Positions 49,931 through 60,046 of a stretch of 64,000 bases of DNA are shown in pieces. The stretch is taken from positions 1,056,001-1,120,000 of the forward strand of contig CBDCVK010000010.1 in the NCBI GenBank assembly GCA_965223005.1, in the 5' to 3' direction. The first letter of the stretch is position 1, and each line of letters opens with the position of its first letter. The notes under the pieces were generated by a model. That model ran no database searches and had not been told where the DNA came from. It was given only the letters and a program-made list of their open reading frames with translations. The DNA comes from Terriglobia bacterium (GTDB lineage: Bacteria; Acidobacteriota; Terriglobia; JAJPHL01; JAPKYU01). A program made the translations under genes and the position numbers.

Positions 49931-50005
49931 TGGAGCCGACGGGGGGACTTGAACCCCCAACCCCCTGATTACGAATCAGGTGCTCTACCATTGAGCTACA
50001 TCGGC
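49931..50005 (-). tRNA. tRNA-Thr(CGT)
   Basis: GCCGATGTAGCTCAATGGTAGAGCACCTGATT-CGT-AATCAGG...GTTCAAGTCCCCCCGTCGGCTCCA. Confidence 0.96.
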
Positions 50006-50062
50006 CTTTGTTTCCTTGCGGTTACGAAGAGCTAGCCTGGTTCTGACCCCTTTACCTAACAT

Positions 50063-50746
50063 ATGGAGAACCTATGGCGGCAGTTCGTACAGGAAAGAGT
50101 ATATCTCAACAACGTCAGCCCTAGAACCGCCGAGTGGTACGGATGGGTGGAGAAGGCTTTCTCGCCTTACGTGGGCAAGTTCTGTGCGTCTGATGGGACT
50201 TCCAAAGAGGTCTTGAAGGAAGCCATCATTCGGATGCGGGAGAAGGGCCTGGACCCGGTTACCATCGCCGGCTACATCCGGGGCCTGAACGCCTTCCTCA
50301 GGTGGGGCCACACCGACGGACACTTTAAGGAACTGCTTGTGATTCCAGTTCCCAGGTGTGAACAGAAGCTCGTCTTACCCTTGACTCCCGAGCACGTCCA
50401 GCGGTTTCTCAAATGGAAACCTGTCCACGGTTCACAGCGCCGGACATTTGTCTTGGTTTGCCTTCTCCTCGACACAGGGATGAGGATTTCAGAAGCCATT
50501 GATCTGCGGAGGGCGGACCTGAACCTCGATGACCTGCTTATCAAGGTGAAGGGCAAGGGCGGGAAGCATCGGCAGGTGCCAATGTCATTTGAGTTGCGGA
50601 AGATACTCTTCCGGTATCTTCAGAAGCATCCGTTTGACTTGGTGTTCGCCACGAGGCATGGAACCAGGTTGACCAGGCGCAACGCTACAAGGGACCTCTA
50701 CAAGCTCTGTGACCGGCTAAGAATACCCAGAAGGGGCTTCCATACT
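50063..50746 (+). pseudogene. XerC/D-like tyrosine integrase, truncated within the HxxR motif
   Basis: LLDTGMRISE, KGKGGKHR, then GFHT followed by unrelated sequence; no LGH..Y box. Confidence 0.85.
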
Positions 50747-51830
50747 GGCCTTTTCTTCGACGGTGACGGATTTCACCTGGCAGGCAGAACTGGGAGTGCG
50801 GCTCGAATCAGGCGGTCAGGAATTGGACGCCGCAGGAAAACGCATTCCATCCCGGCAGAGGAACAGCACGCACAATCAAGGAGCGCGTTTCGATCCCACC
50901 GCTATCGGGAAGGCTTGGATCGTAGGGCATCTTCACCCAGACGACTTCGCGAGGGTCGTATTGCCGAGTGCTTTCAAAGCCGATACCACCCTGAGAGACA
51001 TTCACTGGTTCCAGCACTTCCATCTCTGAGCCGGACTCTCGGCGGATGCGAACTCGCGTTTTCATAGCCATCCGGCGGTACCTGCGATGCTCCTTTGTGC
51101 CTACTAGCTCGGTGTCCAACCCTTCTTCAGCCGTAGACACCTCGAAAGAGGGCGCTGCCACGCGTACAGCCACACCTTTGCTCTTGGTTGAGTAATACAA
51201 ACTTGTGAGCATTAGGATCGGCGGAATTCCTGAAACTATCACCATGAACCAAGCCCAAGGAGGGGTGCCGGGTGTCAAGAGATTCTTTCCCCCTCCATCA
51301 GATACTTTTCGGTGATTAAAGCTTTCGACTACAACATGCTGCATGAAACCGCCCATTTGTTCCGTGTGATAGCGGATATGCACTTCACTCCACCAGAGCT
51401 GAGAAAAGTACTCTTCCGCGCTCACTTCAACGTCCTTAGTGAATCCATCAAATCGAAATGTTAAATAATAGCGTGCAGCACCTATTACGGGAGGCCGTGT
51501 GTCTCCGAACTTGGAGAAGACTATACCAGTAGTGCTCTGAGAGGGGGAAACATGCCAGCCGAAAAGAACGAAGAGGCAAACAAGGGTAGCTGTAGTGCTC
51601 GCAAGAACCCCCCAGAATTGCAGCAAATCTAGCTCAGATAAGAAATCATGACCAATGGCGGCAGTTGTAAAAGAGAGGCATAGAAGACCAAGCAGTACAG
51701 CCGCGAGAGCAGACCAGTGGAAGGAAAAAACCAAAGAAAATAAGCCAAATAGGTAAGCAAGGCTCGACCCAGCTACGAATTCCGCAGTCACCAGCACCCA
51801 AAACTGGAAGTCAGAAGCTTTTCCTTCTAG

Positions 51831-53170
51831 CAGGATGCTGAAAAAGTCCCTGGGCGACCTCTTACGAACAAAATATAAATGAGTATAATTGTTCTCATTA
51901 TGCGAGGACACGATCTGCACCAAGACGCGATGTTCAGCTACCTGAGCCCCGAGCAACGGGTGCCCCAGGATCATCCGTTGCGGCCGATACGCCGCATGAC
52001 CGACCAAGCACTGCAACGGCTTTCGCCGCGGTTCGAGCGGATGTATGCTGACATCGGTCGCCCCTCGATCGCCCCGGAGAAGCTGCTGCGGGCCTTGCTG
52101 CTGCAGGTGCTCTACACCATCCGCAGCGAACGGATGCTGCTGGAGCAACTCGATTACAACCTCCTGTTCCGGTGGTTTGTGGGACTGAACATGGATGACG
52201 CGGTGTGGGTGCCGACGGTGTTCAGCAAGAACCGGGACCGGCTGCTGGAGGGGGCCGTCGCCGAGGCATTCTTTGACGAGGTGTTGCGCGAGGCGGGCGA
52301 GCAGGAGTTGCTGTCGGAGGAGCACTTCACGGTGGACGGGACGCTGCTGGAGGCGTGGGCGAGCCAGAAGAGCTTTCAGAGGAAGGACGCGCCGGAGGGG
52401 CCGCCGCCGGAGGATCCGGGCAATCCCACGGTGGACTTCCACAAAGAGAAGCGGACCAACGAAACGCACCAGTCGACGACAGACCCGGACGCTCGGCTGG
52501 CCCGGAAGGGCAAAGGCAAGGAGGCCAAGCTGAGCTACGTCGGGCACGTGCTGATGGAGAACCGCAACGGGCTGGTGGTGAATGTGCGGCTGACCCAGGC
52601 CACCGGCACCGCCGAGCGGGAAGCGGCCGTGGAGATGGTGGACGACATTCCGGGCCCGAAGCAGGTGACGGTGGGTGCCGACAAGAACTACGACGCCGAA
52701 GCGATGGTGCAGCAGTTGCGGGAACGGAAGGCCACGCCGCACGTGGCGCAGAACCAGGAACGGCGGCGCAGTGCCATCGACAGCCGGACCACACGGCACC
52801 CGGGTTACCAGATCAGCCAGAGAGCGCGGAAGAAGGTGGAAGAGAGTTTCGGATGGATGAAGACGGTCGGGTTGCTGCGGAAGCTGCGGCATCGGGGCCT
52901 GGAGCGCGTCGGCTGGATCTTCACCTTTACGGCTGCCGCCTTCAACCTGGTCCGGATTCGCAACTTGGTGATCGGGGCCGTCCCGCCGCGGGTAGTGGGC
53001 CCAGGGGCCGCCTGAGGAGGAGTGTGTCCAAAGGACGAAAAAGGGCTGGGAAAGGCAAAAGACAAGGCCCCAAAGGGCCAATAGCGAGGTTCACTACGAA
53101 CCGAACGGCTCAAAGAAAATTCCCACAGGATAAACGCTACTGAATTTTTTGGCCCTTTTTCAGCACCCTG
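51831..53170 (+). mobile_element. IS5-family element, apparently intact (1340 bp)
   Basis: CTAG duplication (51827-30, 53171-74); IR CAGG(A/G)TGCTGAAAAAG. Confidence 0.93.
51900..53015 (+). CDS. IS5-family transposase
   Basis: GRPSIAPEKLL, FTVDGT, STTDPDA, GADKNYD, RKKVEESFGW. Confidence 0.93.
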   Translation: MRGHDLHQDAMFSYLSPEQRVPQDHPLRPIRRMTDQALQRLSPRFERMYADIGRPSIAPEKLLRALLLQVLYTIRSERMLLEQLDYNLLFRWFVGLNMDDAVWVPTVFSKNRDRLLEGAVAEAFFDEVLREAGEQELLSEEHFTVDGTLLEAWASQKSFQRKDAPEGPPPEDPGNPTVDFHKEKRTNETHQSTTDPDARLARKGKGKEAKLSYVGHVLMENRNGLVVNVRLTQATGTAEREAAVEMVDDIPGPKQVTVGADKNYDAEAMVQQLRERKATPHVAQNQERRRSAIDSRTTRHPGYQISQRARKKVEESFGWMKTVGLLRKLRHRGLERVGWIFTFTAAAFNLVRIRNLVIGAVPPRVVGPGAA

Positions 53171-53467
53171 CTAGAGTCTTCATGTTGGTTTCGCTGGCAA
53201 GCTCCTTCAGCTTTCTGCTCGGGGCAGGAACCAGCCGTGGAAACAGTGTCGTTGTACGTCGCGAAACCTTCAAGCAGAGTCATGGACTTGGTTACATCCA
53301 AGACACTTCCTAAGCTCAGTGCTCGAAGCAAGCGAATGCTGAATCTGCTGCTTCAAGACTGACCACCAGGAACGCCCCCGTCACCTTGCTTCCTGACTGG
53401 TGGCCTGGTCTTCTTCGCACCAATTTCTCTTGAAACTCTATCCCAAACAGATTAGGATAAATGTGAA

Positions 53468-53632
53468 ATGACCCAGACTGAACTGAGGCGGTTCACAAGC
53501 TGGCTGGGCAAGCGCAGCTACAAGGTGCGCGTGAAGCGGCTGGGCCTTGAACGCATACAGGAAATTGCTCGCAAGAATGGCAAGCTTGGTGGCAGACCAC
53601 GGGGGAGTGGCAAGAAAGGAAGGAAGCAATGA
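53468..53632 (+). CDS. Small basic putative DNA-binding protein (54 aa)
   Basis: Manual translation MTQTELRRFTSWLGKRSYKVRVKRLGLERIQEIARKNGKLGGRPRGSGKKGRKQ*; below the ORF-track cutoff. Confidence 0.55.
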   Translation: MTQTELRRFTSWLGKRSYKVRVKRLGLERIQEIARKNGKLGGRPRGSGKKGRKQ

Positions 53633-53792
53633 GGCGCAGACTGCCACGAGGAGTCTTCTTGAGCGGTCAGAGTTCTTCAAGTACTCTTGGGAGCTATTGG
53701 CTATTGAGCCCCTGACAGGACATCCAGGAACACAAAGATGTTCATGGGAAGGGCGCAAAATCAACAGAAATGAGAGAGGAGGGGTTTAGCTC

Positions 53793-53831
53793 GATTACGA
53801 ATCAGGTGCTCTACCATTGAGCTACATCGGC
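53793..53831 (-). repeat. att-site copy: first 39 nt of tRNA-Thr, through the anticodon loop
   Basis: Exact match to 49967-50005. Confidence 0.93.
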
Positions 53832-53840
53832 ACTGAAGTC

Positions 53841-53870
53841 ATCATAGCAGCGCGCCGCAACGGCTGTCCA
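53841..53870 (-). promoter_or_regulatory. Probable native tRNA-Thr promoter
   Basis: TGGACA-18 bp-TATGAT with extended TG, 9 bp upstream of the tRNA 5' fragment. Confidence 0.6.
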
Positions 53871-53904: not shown

Positions 53905-54819
53905 TCAGTGAGGCGAGTCCCAGCGGAGGCCGACCGCATAAGCCATCGCATAGTGGAGCGTGTCATGGAATGCGGGCGACAGGTCGGTAAGTACGCGGCC
54001 GTACCACCGACGAGGTCGGCCAGGAGAGCGAAAGCAAGAGCCAGGCTGCAGCATCACTAGCCGGCCCTTGAAGGGCATCGAGTCGGCGGCGCGAGCGGAT
54101 CCCAGCCTCGGATACTTGACCAGTGTGTTCCACCAGCCGTCGGTCGGATCGCTCTCGTCCGGGACGAAGTGGCTGAGGCTGACGAAGGCGTTTTCGAACG
54201 GGAGCGGTTCCAGCCAGTCACAGGTTTCGGCCGGCCCCAGCAGTTCGAAAGCGCCGCGACCGATCGCGCGGCGCTTTCCGAACCCGGAGCGCCCCAGAGA
54301 GCGCAACAGCACAGCCAGCCGCTCCAGCCACTCCTCCTCGGCGCGGATGTAAAGTGACAGGAAGCGCTCCTCCTGCGGGACCTCAGGGAGCCAGGTGTAC
54401 TCTTCGACTGCAAACGGGACGGGATCAGCGCCGTCACGCGGAATCGACGCGTGCGTGGGGCGCAGGGTAATCCACCAATGCTGCCGCGGCAACGGCAGCG
54501 CGTAGCTCTGCCCCTCCCGGATGGTAACGAACTGCTGGCGCGTGACCCAGCGCGCCGCCTCCCATGTTTTGCCTTCCTCGGGCGCGCCGGCGTTACCGTC
54601 GGGAACCGCACACAGCGGGCGCGGCAGCAGGTCGGCGGGAGCGGCGTCGGAGAGCAAGAAGGGCGGGGGCCCCTGGCGGAACCGTCTGAGCAAGCGGCTG
54701 AGGGCGTTTTCTCCGGCGCTGTGGGCGATTTCCCAACACAGCGCGCCGAACACCGTGTCGGCCTGCCAGGGCGTCGCCCAAGGGGCCAGGGGCCGAAGGC
54801 AGAAGCGCGCCGATTTCAT
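53905..54819 (-). CDS. csm4: Type III-A RAMP protein Csm4 (Cas5 group)
   Basis: WQADTVFGALCW, PPFLLSDA, G-rich loop GFGKRRAIGRGAF, LSHFVP, MLQPGSCF. Confidence 0.88.
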   Translation of the reverse strand: MKSARFCLRPLAPWATPWQADTVFGALCWEIAHSAGENALSRLLRRFRQGPPPFLLSDAAPADLLPRPLCAVPDGNAGAPEEGKTWEAARWVTRQQFVTIREGQSYALPLPRQHWWITLRPTHASIPRDGADPVPFAVEEYTWLPEVPQEERFLSLYIRAEEEWLERLAVLLRSLGRSGFGKRRAIGRGAFELLGPAETCDWLEPLPFENAFVSLSHFVPDESDPTDGWWNTLVKYPRLGSARAADSMPFKGRLVMLQPGSCFRSPGRPRRWYGRVLTDLSPAFHDTLHYAMAYAVGLRWDSPH

Positions 54820-54898
54820 GCGAGTGAGGCAGGCGGCTGGGCCCGGGCAAACTGACCGCTGTGCCGTAGAGCTTGGCTGGCGGGCAGAGGACGCCGCT

Positions 54899-55567
54899 TC
54901 ATACTGTCACGCTCTCCAGCGTCATCGGGTCCACGCTGATGTTTTCAAAGCGCACTTGGCCGGAGCCCCGGCTGGCGCCGGCGCCCAGCGCTCCAATCTC
55001 TTGAATCAGCCCCAACCCTTTTCGGACAAACTCCAGCATCTTGACCGGCTCATCGCCGTCATAGACGTGAATCAGGATTTCCATCTGGAACTCAGCGTCC
55101 CAAACGCGCTCCTGCCAGCGGGGATGATCGGCGGTCCCTCGGTCGCGATCCACCAGGTTCTCCGCTTTCTCCTCGACGAGCGAGCGGCCGGCAGCCTCCA
55201 ACTCGTGCAGCTTGCGGCCGGACTCGGCCGTCAACGGCGCGTCGCGCACCACGGTGCGGGTGGGAGAGGTTTCGGCCTGAGGCCGCCTGTGGGCGCCGAA
55301 GAGAAGGCACACCAGGCAATCCTTCTGTCCGCAATTGCAGGGGTCGCCGTTGCGGCCCTTTCCCTCCACCTTCTCCAGCATGGCGCGCAGTCGGCCTTTG
55401 AGCGTGGAGCCGGGAATGTAGGGCTCGCCGTTAATGGGATTGCGGATGATAGTGAAGTCAACCAAACCTCCCTCTTCCAGCCAGCTGGGGGGCCCCCCGA
55501 TGCGCAACCCTCCATTGGGGACGCGGATCAACCCGCGCAGGCGCAAGCAGCCAACCAGTTTCTTCAT
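54899..55567 (-). CDS. csm3: Type III-A RAMP protein Csm3 (Cas7 group)
   Basis: GLRIGG...GGLVDFTIIRNP...PYIPGSTLKGRLR, C.C....C..C.LFG, EEKAEN..DR, PRWQERV, LGAGASRGSGQV. Confidence 0.93.
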   Translation of the reverse strand: MKKLVGCLRLRGLIRVPNGGLRIGGPPSWLEEGGLVDFTIIRNPINGEPYIPGSTLKGRLRAMLEKVEGKGRNGDPCNCGQKDCLVCLLFGAHRRPQAETSPTRTVVRDAPLTAESGRKLHELEAAGRSLVEEKAENLVDRDRGTADHPRWQERVWDAEFQMEILIHVYDGDEPVKMLEFVRKGLGLIQEIGALGAGASRGSGQVRFENISVDPMTLESVTV

Positions 55568-56340
55568 CGGCGCTCCTTTCTCTGATGCAGCAGGCCCCCG
55601 GCGTAGGCAACTACGGCCTGGAAGTGCTGGGCGAAGGCGAGCAGGGTCTTTTCGTCGGTGACTCGGTCCACGTTGGCCTCCAGGAACTGGCGGAACAACT
55701 CAGGGATCTTGCGGCGCGCCGCGCGCTCGGCGGCAAACGGCTTCAACTTCTGAATCTCGTTCAACACCAGCTCGATCGGCTGACCGCCGAACCTGCAAGA
55801 GGCAACCGCGCGTTTGACGTGGTTGTGAAAGGCGCGCAGCTGGTGTGCCGTAGAGTCCGTTGGAGGCCAGGCAACCCCCTGGGCAATCTGCTCGGCCCAA
55901 CGGGTGATCAGTTCAGAACGCAGCGAGCCCGCCGGCGTGAAGTAGCCGCCTTCCAGGTAGCCGGCCGGCAAGCCGTGAACCGTCTCCGGAGCAATTCCGC
56001 GACCGGGGCCGCGAGCGCGGGTCCGGGTCGCGGGCAGCCGATCGCGGCGGGGCGCGCGCGCTCGCGCGGGCTCTGCGCGGCGCTCGACCGTCTCCGGAGC
56101 CGCGGCTGCAGTCTCGGCCGGTTTTGTGGAGCTGGGCTTCTCAGCGACTTCCCCTGCTTCGGTCGCCGCTTCGGCGGTGCGCTCGGTGCGCACCGCGGCA
56201 ATGCATTCGACGCAGAGCTTGTGTTGTGGCCGCGCCGGGCGGAACATCTTGGCGCAGCGAGCGCAGGCTTTTTCCGCCGGGGGCTCCGGCGGTTCGGACT
56301 TCACGCCCGCCTTACGAAGGGCATCTTCCATACTCCCCAT
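55564..56340 (-). CDS. csm2: Csm2 (Cas11) small subunit with N-terminal zinc-finger extension
   Basis: C-terminal QLRAFHNHVK...FAQHFQAVVAY; position between cas10 and csm3; N-terminal CxxC-13-CxxC. Confidence 0.85.
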   Translation of the reverse strand: MGSMEDALRKAGVKSEPPEPPAEKACARCAKMFRPARPQHKLCVECIAAVRTERTAEAATEAGEVAEKPSSTKPAETAAAAPETVERRAEPARARAPRRDRLPATRTRARGPGRGIAPETVHGLPAGYLEGGYFTPAGSLRSELITRWAEQIAQGVAWPPTDSTAHQLRAFHNHVKRAVASCRFGGQPIELVLNEIQKLKPFAAERAARRKIPELFRQFLEANVDRVTDEKTLLAFAQHFQAVVAYAGGLLHQRKERR

Positions 56341-56355
56341 AATCGCAATCCAAGA

Positions 56356-57951
56356 TCAAGTGCCGGCGTCCAAGGATGCGTACGCCACAAGAAATTCTAT
56401 CCACGTCCGGTCGGAATTTTCATCATCCTTTAGCAGGCGGCTAGCCCAGGCCCGCGCCGGGCGATGCTTCACGCGAGGGTCCCGGACCGCCGCGGCCAGC
56501 AGCGGGCGCCCGCGAGCTTCCCCGCTTCGGCTGGAGACGCAGCCTTCGGCCAGGCGGCGCAGCCAGGCCCGGGTGACGGCCCGCCGCTGAAGCCAATCGG
56601 CCAGCGCTCTTGCGGTCTTGAGCAACGAGGCCACCCGCCCCCACTCAATCGCGGTTCCGAAGGCGTACAGACGGTTCCCGCCCGCGTCCTTGGCTTGCCG
56701 CATTGCTTCGGTGGCCAGCTCGACGCCGGCGCGCAGGGTCGCGTGTGGCGGCAACAAGCTCAGGCCGGCCGAAAACGTTAACCCGTCGCCCACGAGTGCC
56801 TGGAAATCCTGCTCGAGACGCAGCGCAAGCTCGAGCGTGTCTTTCCAGGGCCCGATCAGCAGCAGGTCATCGCCGCCGCCAAAGACCGGGAAGACCAGTG
56901 GGAAGTCGCTTTGCAGCAGGTGGTGGAGATGTTCGCCGAAGAAACCATCCAGCAGGCGGCTGAGCGCCACACTCCGCTCCGGATCCCCTGCCAGGGCGGC
57001 GAACGCCAGGGCAGCACGGTCCACGTCAGCGCAAAGATAACCCAGCACGTTCTTGCTGCCTCCGGTCCGATGCGCCAATTCCTCGAGACTGGCCGGATGC
57101 CCATTTGGCGCGGGCAGGCGGCGCAGCAGCGGCCAGGATTCACTATCGAGGCGCAATTGAACTGCAAACGCATCTGCCGGGGGCGAAAACTTCAGACCCA
57201 AGCCTGGGCCGGGCAGGTCGGCTTCCGGCTCCGGGCAAAACCAGGAGCTTTCGATGTCAGGCAGGCGAGCGGCAAGCTCGTGGTCGGCGGCGCAGGCCTT
57301 ACATAAAGTTTCTTCATCCCTAACCTGCACAGAAGTCACGGTGGCGCAGCCGGAACATAGCCCGGTGTCTGCACCGGCAGGCTCAACAAATGCCCGTCCG
57401 TTCCAACGCAAACCGATGCGCAGGGCCCCTTCCAGCGGTTGCCGGCGGCGTTGCCTAAGGCGCTCTGCCAGCTGGTCCCAAGGCAACCGGTCGCCTTCGC
57501 AGATCGCGCCAGCCAAGTGAAGTTCGAGCTCCCCTGCCGGGACCCACTGTTGGAACAACCAAATGTCAAATTCGCGCTGGAGCGATTGAAGAGTCTCTTC
57601 CCATCCTGCCTTGGCGGGCCCCACCAATAAGAATCTGCTCGCGGCACGGAGTAGGCAAACCAGACCCAACCGCTCGGTCAAGCGCCGTGCCAAGAGCTCG
57701 CCGAGCGCTGCCGTGCGGAACGAGCGCGCGCGAAGCCGTTGGGCGGCGGCTCCCGCTGCCGGAGTCGGCCGGATGACATACCGCAGAACGCCGCTCAACG
57801 TCCCTTCGACCACCAGGTTGCCGGCGCGGACCTCCGCAACCGGGGCCACCTCCGCGGGCAGCGAGCCCTCTCCACGCCAAATGGCAGCGAACTGAGGCAA
57901 GCCTCGCTGGACTTCCCCTTCTGCCGTCGCCTGCTCGAGTTCCGGTTCCAT
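56356..57951 (-). CDS. cas10: Cas10/Csm1 lacking the HD domain (531 aa)
   Basis: RLRARSF, CSGC..CKAC zinc finger, LGYLCADVD, LSRLLDGFF, FGGGDDLLLIGPW, TFSAG, AKDAG. Confidence 0.9.
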   Translation of the reverse strand: MEPELEQATAEGEVQRGLPQFAAIWRGEGSLPAEVAPVAEVRAGNLVVEGTLSGVLRYVIRPTPAAGAAAQRLRARSFRTAALGELLARRLTERLGLVCLLRAASRFLLVGPAKAGWEETLQSLQREFDIWLFQQWVPAGELELHLAGAICEGDRLPWDQLAERLRQRRRQPLEGALRIGLRWNGRAFVEPAGADTGLCSGCATVTSVQVRDEETLCKACAADHELAARLPDIESSWFCPEPEADLPGPGLGLKFSPPADAFAVQLRLDSESWPLLRRLPAPNGHPASLEELAHRTGGSKNVLGYLCADVDRAALAFAALAGDPERSVALSRLLDGFFGEHLHHLLQSDFPLVFPVFGGGDDLLLIGPWKDTLELALRLEQDFQALVGDGLTFSAGLSLLPPHATLRAGVELATEAMRQAKDAGGNRLYAFGTAIEWGRVASLLKTARALADWLQRRAVTRAWLRRLAEGCVSSRSGEARGRPLLAAAVRDPRVKHRPARAWASRLLKDDENSDRTWIEFLVAYASLDAGT

Positions 57952-58149: not shown

Positions 58150-58803
58150 ATGCCTGAGCTCCGAACCGCCTGGGTGACCTTCGACTGCTACGGCACCCTG
58201 ATTGACTGGGAGTCAGGCATTCAGCAGTTCCTGCGCACCCACCCAGGTCGGGATGACCTGCTGGCGGAATGGGAAGAGATCCAGGTCCGCATGATCCAGG
58301 GTCCTTACCGGCCCTACAAGCAGGTCCTGGCTGACAGCCTTCGTGAGACGCTTCAGGCGCACGGGCTAGAATTTCGGCCGGAACTAAGCGAGGCTTTCAT
58401 TCGCTCGCTCCCCAGGTGGAAGCCATTTTTGGAGACGAATTCTGCGCTTGAGGCTTTGCGGGCCAGGGGGCTTAAGCTCGGCATCATCTCCAACATTGAC
58501 GATGACCTGCTGGCCCAGACAGTAGAACAGTTCACCGTTCGCTTTGACCTGCTAGTGACCGCCCAGCAGGCGGGCGCCTACAAACCGGCCCACGCCGGAT
58601 TTCGGCTGGCGCTGTCGCGGATTGGTCTTCCCGCCCGTCAGGTGACCCACGTGGCCTTTGGCGACCGCTACGACCTGGCCACCGCCCGGGCCTGCGGGAT
58701 GCAAGTAGTTTGCGTGAACCGCCAAGGCAAGGCGTTGGCCACACCCGTCGACGCAGGAGTTCCAGACCTGTCGGGGCTGGAGGAAGTCATCATACGGAGT
58801 TAA
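58150..58803 (+). CDS. HAD-family hydrolase (haloacid dehalogenase type II-like)
   Basis: TFDCYGTLIDWE, ISNIDD, AYKP. Confidence 0.9.
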   Translation: MPELRTAWVTFDCYGTLIDWESGIQQFLRTHPGRDDLLAEWEEIQVRMIQGPYRPYKQVLADSLRETLQAHGLEFRPELSEAFIRSLPRWKPFLETNSALEALRARGLKLGIISNIDDDLLAQTVEQFTVRFDLLVTAQQAGAYKPAHAGFRLALSRIGLPARQVTHVAFGDRYDLATARACGMQVVCVNRQGKALATPVDAGVPDLSGLEEVIIRS

Positions 58804-58822: not shown

Positions 58823-60046
58823 CTATCCGCTGAGAGCAATGGCCTGAAGGGCACGGACTTCGCCGCTGCGAAATTCGTATTTCTCCAGGCGGGTGGTGTT
58901 GACCCCCTGCTCCACCAGCGCGGGTACGTCCAGCGCCGCTTCGGCGCGGTCCAGTTCTTCCGGGCGGGCGTGCAGGGCCGGAGCGCGCGGCTGAAACAGT
59001 GGGCAGCAGTCCTGGAACGGCTCGGAGGAGATGGCGAAGCTGCCCAGGCGCTCGGCCACTTGCAAGATTTCCAGCTTGTCCTCGCCTATCAGCGGGCGGT
59101 AGACGGGCAGCGTGGCTGCCCGGTCAACAGCCTGCAAGTTGTGCAGGGTTTGTGACGCCACCTGGGCGACGCTGTCGCCGGTGATCAGGCCCAGGGCGTG
59201 CTCGCGGCGGGCCAGACGCTCGGCGATCCGCAGCATCATGCGGCGGTAGAGCAGAATGCGATAGGGCTCCGGCGCGGCGGTCACGATCTGCCGCTGGATG
59301 GGCTCGAAGGGCACCAGGTAGAGGCGCGCCGTGAACTGGTAGGGGGCCAGAAGCCGTACCAGCTCCTGCACGACGGGGGCGGAGGATTCACCCGGCCGCG
59401 AGGGGAGCGCGTGAAAGTGAGTAAACACCACGTGCACGCCCCGCTTCATCATTTTGTAGGCGGCCACCGCGGAGTCGTAGCCACCCGAAAGCAGGCACAC
59501 CAGCCGGCCCGCGGTGTTGGCCGGCATGCCTCCTGGGCCGGGCAGCTTCTCGCTATAGATGAGCGCCGAACCGGCGGTGATCTCCACAAAGCAGGTGAGC
59601 CCTGGGCGGCTCAGGTTGACGCGAGCGCCGGGATGGCCGGCGGCCCGCAGGCGATCCAGCAGGTACTGCCCCGCCAGACGCTCCATCTCCGAGGTGCCAA
59701 GGGGGAAGGACTTGTCGGCGCGCTTGACGCGTACGGCAAAGCTTTCAAACCCACGCCCGCCAACCTCTTCCCAGGCCGCGGCGCAGATTGGTTCCGGGTC
59801 GGCCTCCACGCGCCGGGCGACCGCGAAATAGACCAGGCCAAACACGCGCCCGAGCCGCGCGACGGCAATTTCCACCGATGCATCTTCCAGAAGGTCAACC
59901 AGGATGCGGCTGTGGGCGATCCGCGCGTGATGCGGAAGCGGATCCAGGCTCTGCCGGACGGCGATCAATAACTTGCCCAGGAAGAAGTTGCGGTTCCCTC
60001 CCTTCAGCCACAACTCGTGAAAGTGCAGGACCAGAGTGCGCGTCAT
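58823..60046 (-). CDS. thiI: tRNA 4-thiouridine synthase (THUMP + PP-loop, no rhodanese domain)
   Basis: ELWLKGGNR, LLSGGYDS, TGDSVAQVASQTL, RPL, DCC. Confidence 0.92.
   Translation of the reverse strand: MTRTLVLHFHELWLKGGNRNFFLGKLLIAVRQSLDPLPHHARIAHSRILVDLLEDASVEIAVARLGRVFGLVYFAVARRVEADPEPICAAAWEEVGGRGFESFAVRVKRADKSFPLGTSEMERLAGQYLLDRLRAAGHPGARVNLSRPGLTCFVEITAGSALIYSEKLPGPGGMPANTAGRLVCLLSGGYDSAVAAYKMMKRGVHVVFTHFHALPSRPGESSAPVVQELVRLLAPYQFTARLYLVPFEPIQRQIVTAAPEPYRILLYRRMMLRIAERLARREHALGLITGDSVAQVASQTLHNLQAVDRAATLPVYRPLIGEDKLEILQVAERLGSFAISSEPFQDCCPLFQPRAPALHARPEELDRAEAALDVPALVEQGVNTTRLEKYEFRSGEVRALQAIALSG

Follow-up and report, generated by a model that had tools for sequence, protein, structure and literature searches.

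The 64,000-nucleotide stretch of DNA analyzed here (the window) comes from contig CBDCVK010000010.1 of a Terriglobia bacterium (Acidobacteriota; assembly GCA_965223005.1), and positions 53905–57951 of it carry four genes, cas10-csm2-csm3-csm4, that match type III-A (Csm) CRISPR systems (named for clustered and regularly interspaced short palindromic repeats). Type III systems are sensors guided by CRISPR RNA (crRNA), and their outputs are an HD nuclease and cyclic-oligoadenylate (cOA) signaling. We propose that the four-gene module is a functional, vertically inherited derivative of a type III-A-like system that has become independent of CRISPR arrays, and we put the probability of this reading at roughly 0.6. 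The four genes of this soil-type bacterium probably serve a job that has been freed from CRISPR memory. In the clade to which they belong, the HD domain is gone from every member and the cyclase motif from most of them, yet the subunits of the ribonucleoprotein (RNP) and the RNase site of Csm3 have stayed under purifying selection at order-level divergence.

The module consists of four uninterrupted open reading frames (ORFs) on the minus strand, with one spacer of some size between them:

56356..57951, minus strand: cas10/csm1, 531 aa, NCBIfam TIGR02578
55564..56340, minus strand: csm2/cas11-like gene, 258 aa, PF03750 and TIGR01870
54899..55567, minus strand: csm3 (Cas7 backbone RNase), 222 aa, TIGR02582
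54820..54898, minus strand: csm3-csm4 spacer, 79 nt, holding no gene in the window genome
53905..54819, minus strand: csm4 (Cas5-type subunit), 304 aa, TIGR01903

An earlier note on this DNA, made from its letters alone, had described four uninterrupted ORFs in type III-A order, and both the ORF coordinates and the NCBIfam scores agree with that description. Each gene product scores above the curated cutoff of its type III-A family: 201.2 bits against 170 for Cas10/Csm1, 35 against 30.6 for Csm2, 133 against 90 for Csm3, and 90.9 against 55 for Csm4. Pfam and PADLOC profiles concur with this assignment for all four genes; csm4, for example, matches the PADLOC Csm4 profile PDLC01494 with 193.8 bits over the full profile length. 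The GC content of the module is 0.66, compared with 0.61–0.62 for the contigs.

The module is conserved across the order to which the window genome belongs (class Terriglobia), represented by 11 genomes in our collection. A search for Cas10 in the window genome and 60 relatives gave matches in 14 of the 61 genomes (family f1, 5/6; sister family f2, 4/4; family f7, 4/6); the f7 matches are weak (30–34% identity) and are the only ones among 50 same-class genomes outside the order. Within the order, nine of the ten relatives have a Cas10 homologue, as do all three same-genus genomes. Csm3 is matched in 10 of the 11 order genomes, the miss being G006 (71% complete), whose 4-kb contig carries cas10 and breaks off after the start of csm2. 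In G004 (72% complete), the sole Csm3 has 42% identity and a second RAMP adjoining it, i.e., it belongs to a different type III locus; the RAMP search gave just one match in nine of the 11 order genomes. The four-gene module is present in 10/11 order genomes and is counted as intact, up to the contig ends, in nine of them; two copies show possible breaks and two are cut by contig ends. Eight loci from relatives all have the same gene order over the length of their contigs. Identity across the order falls to 54–60% for Csm3 and to 31–38% for Cas10.

Metagenomes were also scanned with the Csm3 alignment, which gave 26 loci in four groups by identity and content: group A, eight loci similar to that of G005; group B, six f2-like loci; group C, five loci at ~45% identity; and group D, seven distant, canonical loci. 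No CRISPR array was found in any locus of group A, group B or the window’s genus (g1), with flanks of up to 10 kb considered. The clade is rare in wider databases: Cas10 matches ten 90%-identity clusters at E ≤1e-5.

All four genes are under purifying selection. We compared the window genome with G001, G003, and G005 by the Nei-Gojobori method (csm4 without the G005 comparison). The ratios of nonsynonymous to synonymous substitution rates (dN/dS) are 0.20–0.32 for cas10, 0.22–0.28 for csm2, 0.10–0.17 for csm3, and 0.17–0.27 for csm4. Two neighboring housekeeping genes, thiI and pccB, have values of 0.10–0.12 and 0.05–0.09, respectively.

The Cas10 of the module lacks the HD nuclease domain. 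Its TIGR02578 match comprises profile positions 230–689 of 753, its alignment to the solved Csm1 chain 9zs2_A begins at chain residue 222, and its length is 531 aa, compared with 750–816 aa in solved Csm1 chains. Palm1, the zinc finger (CxxC...CxxC), Palm2, the DxD strand, and the C-terminal helical domain are retained, and the Palm2 GGDD motif is intact (FGGGDDLLLIGPW, aligned to the GGDD of 9zs2_A). The AlphaFold2 model has a mean confidence (pLDDT) of 85 and a predicted TM-score (pTM) of 0.85. Its best Foldseek matches are III-A Csm1 chains, with TM-scores of 0.73–0.74 by query (TMq) and only ~0.5 by target (TMt), the latter because the Csm1 target chains have an extra domain.

The HD domain is missing from every Cas10 of the array-less clade, and the zinc-finger cysteines are invariant. 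GGDD is intact in 5 of 16 aligned sequences (the window genome, G001, G006, G009, and L040) and replaced in the other 11, i.e., in six group A loci, G003 (GSNA), G010 (GVGH), G008 (GDHD), and G007 with the identical L041; these 16 rows include several near-copies and are not 16 independent observations. The pattern implies no fewer than four independent losses (in G003, in group A, in G010, and in G007/G008), one of them inside the window’s own genus. The DxD strand and GGDD are both intact in the window genome, G001, and G009/L040; G006 has GGDD without the first Asp of DxD. In group A and G006, Cas10 has an acidic, Pro/Ala/Glu-rich N-terminal tail at the place of the HD domain.

By contrast with the Cas10 motif, the catalytic Asp of Csm3 is constant. 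D37 of the window protein aligns with D33 of the Streptococcus thermophilus Csm3 chain 6ifn_F, which we take to be the catalytic residue, and all 29 sequences in the alignment, which spans all groups, have an Asp at this position. The window protein also retains a CxC...CxxC motif. Since the HD domain is absent, GGDD is often lost, and the Csm3 Asp is always kept, the conserved enzymatic capacity of the module would be the Csm3 RNase, and Cas10 looks to be retained mainly as a scaffold. The earlier note had suggested Cas10 nucleotide synthesis as a possible activity. As a conserved activity it is unlikely, since GGDD is lost in 11/16 sequences, including same-genus G003, and no CARF-type sensor was found (see below), although residual synthesis by Cas10 may persist in the window genome.

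The components on which an ordinary type III-A system relies were sought throughout the window genome, a 3.24-Mb draft in 10 contigs (96.28% complete, 0.34% contaminated). A k-mer chain scan, which detected arrays in four control loci, found no CRISPR array in the whole draft, and a scan for two-copy repeats gave nothing beyond tandem repeats and a single unique pair of 28 nt. A six-frame profile search of the whole genome gave no match to Cas1, Cas2, or Cas6 (PF01881, TIGR01877). The only genomic match to Csm5 (TIGR01899), at 18.4 bits, lies inside csm3 itself, and the only match to PF03787 is csm3, meaning that the genome has no second RAMP. The CARF-HEPN family TIGR02710 and the Csx1 HEPN family PF09455 have no match in the genome, other CARF families being outside the search. 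Searches for the SAVED and Csb2 families carry no information because their positive controls were silent.

These results extend to the whole genome what the earlier note had said of the window, namely that cas6, cas1/cas2, csm5, CARF effectors, and arrays are lacking; the SAVED part of that statement gains nothing from our search. The rest of the genome yielded neither an array nor cas6 nor csm5, and the split but ordinary III-A system that the earlier note had named as refuting its idea is therefore not shown. The suggestion of a reduced, array-independent complex has held up, given a reduced locus order-wide, a genome free of detected arrays, and dN/dS of 0.10–0.32. Among relatives, G003 and G001 contain 42-aa stretches, within 77-aa frames, that match the Cas1 profile toward its C-terminal end (28–31 bits), at C2:1262196-1262321 and 1601762-1601887 in G003 (identical copies) and at C3:432293-432415 in G001; these may be remnants of Cas1 or belong to a repeated element, and the 3-kb loci around them contain no array.

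A guide was sought in several ways. The repeats of L046, L057, the G007 array (L023), and L050 gave only 13- to 14-nt GC-rich chance matches in the genome (E ≥0.24). Handle-like motifs beside the module have no consistent position in the 26 loci, Rfam detects no family in the window beyond two tRNAs, and no conserved noncoding space adjoins the module across groups. The earlier note had proposed an in-trans or non-CRISPR guide; neither repeat, handle-motif, nor relative searches yielded a candidate. The 28-nt identical direct repeats (C8:119412-119439 and 119505-119532, 93 nt apart) occur nowhere else in the genome and were rejected because the pair is present in none of the 10 relatives of the order and is thus not a conserved guide. 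Spacers are missing from the remaining repeat candidates (C10:719970, C2:209800, C9:1690, and others), which are tandem repeats and not arrays; the one at C10:719970-720140 has ~6 copies of a ~27-nt unit.

There is a weak hint that the module is transcribed. Four metatranscriptome libraries, from three studies, contain contigs that each match part of the module and jointly all four genes; one library supplies two pieces with 100% identity to the window. Contigs from RNA libraries break exactly at 53792 and 53831. Such contigs show neither strand, ends, nor level, and the parts left uncovered carry no meaning. The hint is weak because the libraries may contain DNA.

A clade-specific feature of the module lies in Csm2, or Cas11. 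PF03750 (42.2 bits) and TIGR01870 (35 bits) cover only residues 145–247. The protein begins with an N-terminal helix (MGSMEDALRKAG), followed by a CxxC-x13-CxxC zinc ribbon, a disordered, Pro/Arg/Ala-rich linker of ~55 residues, and the Cas11 helical bundle (approximately residues 121–258). In the AlphaFold2 model, the ribbon and helix are confident, residues 66–120 have pLDDT <50, and the Cas11 domain has values of 84–97; the top five Foldseek matches to the bundle are Csm2 chains. Cas11 is 244–339 aa long in the array-less clade rather than ~160 aa. In the Cas11 alignment, the insert of zinc ribbon and linker is found in 12 of 12 members of the array-less clade and in none of three array-linked relatives, and the short N-terminal helix motif is common to both sets. 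The ribbon is duplicated in G009 and G010. Relative to the array-linked relatives, the ribbon and disordered linker are, on this alignment, a predicted clade-specific gain.

When the Cas11 profile was compared with a library of 1.84 billion representatives, the top six matches scored 246–292 bits and the next scored 210; in four of these six, the alignment begins at profile position 1. Outside the clade, several proteins (P0019, P0020, P0028, P0032, P0049, P0052, and P0075) are Cas11-like with an N-terminal zinc ribbon and a low-complexity linker, some having two tandem Cas11 domains.

The array-linked relatives are the group C loci (L044, L046, L047, L051, and L057). They have cas10-csm2-csm3-csm4 with an HD-less Cas10 (GGDD intact in two of three) and a short, ribbon-less Cas11 of 156–164 aa, and they lack csm5 and cas6. 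Here, the module adjoins type I-G genes, i.e., Cas8g, Cas7g, Csb2, and Cas4-Cas1 (L046 84-13749; L044; L057). Downstream lie a CARF-HEPN gene, which matches TIGR02710 below cutoff (64.7 bits) and the Pfam Csm6 HEPN family above cutoff, and a CRISPR array with repeats of 36–37 nt (12 repeats in L046; three at a contig end in L057). These compact I-G/III hybrid loci (L046, L044, L057) may be worth separate study.

The Csm3 tree follows taxonomy and places g1 and groups A, B, and C in one starred clade (98/96), separate from group D and G004. Forks within this clade are open, such that monophyly of the array-less loci is argued from the shared Cas11 insert only. Because the array-linked relatives hold the same four effector genes, csm5 was not lost here. 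In the simplest history, a four-gene Csm complex once used the crRNAs of the I-G system together with a Csm6-type effector. The ancestor of the order would then have lost its I-G and Csm6-type partners and gained the Cas11 insert, and the cyclase site would be in the course of being lost.

How might the module work? The four proteins would assemble into a Csm-like RNP, in which Cas10-Csm4 would form the foot, Csm3 the backbone, and Cas11 the minor filament, around RNA of non-array origin. Cas10 would act mainly as a scaffold, and the conserved output would be sequence-dependent RNA binding with RNA cleavage catalyzed by Csm3. Such an RNP would serve the host cell in RNA regulation or surveillance, as opposed to adaptive immunity. 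We infer this non-defense role; it fits the housekeeping setting of the module and its order-wide vertical conservation. A more specific version, less likely than not, is that an entire order of Terriglobia domesticated a type III effector as a chromosomal, CRISPR-independent RNP that would bind cellular, non-CRISPR RNA and control host or invader transcripts by Csm3 cleavage, possibly with partners held on the ribbon arm of Cas11.

Several observations weigh against array-independent function. First, neither the genome nor the module yielded a guide RNA candidate, and a 10-contig draft at 96% completeness leaves room for an unassembled array. Second, G007 and G008 have Cas1 and an array on other contigs, where crRNA could be supplied in trans. 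Third, GGDD and DxD are intact in the window genome, where Cas10 may remain an enzyme. Fourth, two copies look interrupted: csm3 of G008 is split over two frames, with one TAA within the match (L016 7499-8159), and csm4 of G005 is matched as two high-scoring segment pairs (L018 1016-1611). These may be sequencing errors or local decay; metagenome loci near-identical to that of G005 (e.g., L033) have an intact csm4. Finally, the relatives are kin and not independent observations, and RNA-library contigs can be DNA carry-over.

One alternative is that the module carries out ordinary type III interference with crRNA borrowed in trans, its array and Cas6 or Csb2 being unassembled or on a missing replicon. 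Many type III loci without arrays or adaptation genes of their own are thought to use the crRNAs of others, according to a published survey (PMC12669027). The nearest array-linked relatives also do without cas6 and csm5, beside a I-G system whose Csb2 could process crRNA, and the G007 and G008 arrays and the draft state of the genome, in which repeats often remain unassembled, fit the same explanation. We nevertheless consider it unlikely. Two genome scans that detected control arrays found none here, the genome has no Cas1, Cas2, Cas6, or further RAMP, and just 2 of the 11 order genomes have a Cas1 larger than a fragment, although the module is under purifying selection in the genus that lacks Cas1. 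Moreover, with the HD domain absent, the cyclase often lost, and no CARF effector found, Csm3 cleavage is the only usual interference output that would be left even if a crRNA were supplied.

A second alternative retains the cyclase: Cas10 of the window genome would still make a second messenger in response to RNA and signal to an unrecognized cOA effector. The intact GGDD and DxD of the window genome, G001, and G009/L040 are consistent with this, as is the pairing of the four-gene module with a CARF-HEPN protein in group C. However, the genome has neither a TIGR02710 CARF-HEPN nor a Csx1 HEPN match (the SAVED control being silent), the motif is lost in 11/16 clade members, and same-genus G003, with GSNA in place of GGDD, has all four genes intact and constrained. 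We regard a surviving cyclase sensor as rather unlikely.

A third alternative, a sensor activated by target RNA that signals through direct contact with partner proteins, following a logic like that of the TPR-CHAT protease on type III-E, draws on the operon neighbors of the module. The csm3-csm4 junction is a variable slot within the genus. In G003, it holds an operon-strand gene for an 832-aa Ser/Thr kinase-TPR protein (L015 13147-15645) with strong matches to the PADLOC PD-T4-6 kinase domain; in G001, it holds an operon-strand gene for a 387-aa ankyrin/DUF2059 protein (L014 7317-8480). The intergenic stubs around these slot genes are homologous between G001 and G003. In family f2, a response regulator with REC and GerE/LuxR domains lies directly 3′ of csm4 in G007, G008, and G009 (L016 5830-6546, L017 13236-13928, L019 5200-5934), as it does in all three group B loci that are long enough (L041, L043, L048), so that every f2 locus reaching beyond csm4 has it. 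In group A, a cold-shock-domain gene lies divergently upstream of cas10 (L033 6668-6910, L035 463-705, L036 6687-6929). These neighbors suggest signaling or RNA-related partners, and the modeled zinc ribbon and disordered arm of Cas11 could be a docking element. On the other hand, partners vary by lineage, synteny within a family is not independent evidence, and the slot of the window genome is empty, with no such neighbor. We therefore rate signaling by contact as improbable.

The last alternative is that deletion or insertion sequence (IS) activity cut down a once complete III-A locus and that what is left is decaying, with erosion pending; we rate it as very improbable. In its favor, an IS5-like element and a truncated integrase lie 0.1–3.8 kb downstream, the HD domain, csm5, cas6, and array are missing, GGDD is eroding in relatives, and G008 csm3 and G005 csm4 look interrupted. 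Against it, dN/dS of 0.10–0.32 rejects decay, the four intact ORFs persist order-wide at the low identities given above, the IS element and integrase belong to a later tRNA-Thr insertion without a deletion scar (insertion-free relatives share the four-gene end), and the array-linked relatives also carry only these four effector genes. The earlier note had named relatives with the complete locus, together with dN/dS near 1, as the mark of such decay; the relatives instead share the reduced four-gene locus.

Array-independent function, our preferred reading, can be set beside several known systems. The module resembles type III-A in its Cas10/Csm1-Csm2-Csm3-Csm4 order, NCBIfam scores, Csm1 fold match, Csm3 Asp, and, in the window genome, GGDD. 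It differs from type III-A in having no HD domain, Csm5, Cas6, array, adaptation genes, or Csm6, in the zinc ribbon and disordered insert of Cas11, in a cyclase motif that is dispensable in relatives, and in being fixed in a housekeeping neighborhood with vertical inheritance across an order. The group C loci share the four-gene set, the HD-less Cas10, the absence of csm5 and cas6, the Csm3 clade, and the N-terminal motif of Cas11, but they have their own array, Cas4-Cas1, Cas8g/Cas7g/Csb2, and CARF-HEPN, with a short Cas11 that lacks the ribbon.

Type IV-B systems are typically plasmid-borne, and their Cas7 is not known to cleave RNA, whereas the Asp is conserved in Csm3 of the window. Like the module, type IV-B is class 1 effector-like and has no array, Cas6, or nuclease large subunit; unlike it, type IV-B is built from the Csf1/Csf2/Csf3 families, and the window proteins match Csm, with no Csf model among the listed matches. 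The Csf complex is reported to be Csm-like, to do without subunits for processing and cleavage, and to form on a heterogeneous set of RNAs of non-CRISPR origin (PMC7937560). For an RNP that is Csm-like and array-independent, type IV-B offers the best precedent in mechanistic terms, the likeness lying in the proposed working only.

Reduced type III systems are also known. In the survey cited above, the III-G and III-H subtypes are described as having an inactivated cyclase, no CARF/SAVED partners, and no adaptation module, while keeping an apparently active HD domain and having lost the catalytic Asp of Cas7; they are predicted to cleave DNA, and III-G is specific to Sulfolobales and has Csx26 (PMC12669027). 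By that description, the window module has the reverse pattern, with the HD domain absent, the Csm3 Asp present in 29/29 sequences, and GGDD intact. Highly derived class 1 cas operons, unlinked to arrays and possibly non-defensive, are cited for Haloarchaea and Asgard archaea (PMC8730458). These belong to other lineages and have diverged Cas5/Cas7, with no III-A-type Cas10 as far as the title of the cited work says. We found no description of the present clade in the literature searched, supplementary locus tables being outside the reach of that search.

The surroundings of the module are those of a housekeeping neighborhood, into which an element has been inserted downstream:

58823..60046, minus strand: thiI (tRNA 4-thiouridine synthase), conserved housekeeping flank
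58150..58803, plus strand: divergent HAD-family (type II haloacid dehalogenase-like) gene, by Pfam/NCBIfam; a flank kept with cas10 in family f1
53841..53870, minus strand: sigma-70-like site, matched by consensus only, of the promoter that formerly served tRNA-Thr
53793..53831, minus strand: first 39 nt of tRNA-Thr, a residual attachment (att) repeat, 100% identical to 49967-50005
50006..53792, no strand assigned: inserted element, ~3.8 kb, separate from the cas module
51879-53015, plus strand: IS5-like transposase (DUF772 and DDE_Tnp_1), 378 aa, in an element spanning 51819-53175
50808-53081, minus strand: PilZ-domain ORF, 757 aa, with hydrophobic segments, mostly antisense of the IS5-like transposase
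50063-51067, plus strand: tyrosine-recombinase ORF that looks truncated, matching positions 3–123 of 172 in the Pfam integrase domain
49931..50005, minus strand: intact tRNA-Thr (CGT), by tRNA/Rfam scan

Upstream, the divergent HAD gene and thiI that the earlier note had named are confirmed by Pfam and NCBIfam matches, and a carboxyl-transferase (pccB-like) gene is next beyond thiI. The thiI-HAD-cas10 synteny is kept in G003 and G006; G001 retains thiI and has no HAD match. Downstream, a promoter-like site (TGGACA-18-TATGAT, 10 of 12 consensus matches) lies 34 nt past the csm4 stop, and in two same-genus genomes, a full tRNA-Thr is directly 3′ of csm4. The spacing of about 35 bp previously given between csm4 and the tRNA-Thr promoter thus stands, but the tRNA at that place is only a 5′ half, with the intact gene ~3.8 kb away. 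Because the end of csm4 abuts the promoter and tRNA-Thr, there is no space for csm5, cas6, or an array, in line with what had been said of csm5. The inserted element, which has the perfect 39-bp direct repeat at either end, is probably now immobile. Its IS5-like element has two further near-identical copies of ~1.35 kb (C10:504185-505533 and C8:18813-20168) and several diverged copies on C2, C9, and C8. Two candidate partners from this side were rejected: the 757-aa PilZ ORF as an effector, which is mostly IS5-like antisense and lies within the later tRNA-Thr insertion, and tRNA-Thr as a co-transcribed partner, since the adjacency holds in genus g1 only and not in groups A and B.

If the module has been domesticated, it would be the equivalent, among type III systems, of type IV-B and of the CRISPR exaptations carried by transposons, and its role would be a housekeeping or regulatory one. 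Should its complex form on non-CRISPR RNA, a type III effector would clearly have been domesticated by its host, and the module would also provide a natural, minimal, four-protein RNA-targeting Csm complex without collateral outputs, which would be of interest as a tool. Together with the array-less modules, the sister loci that combine I-G, four-gene Csm, and CARF-HEPN would form a before-and-after pair for a CRISPR effector gaining its independence.

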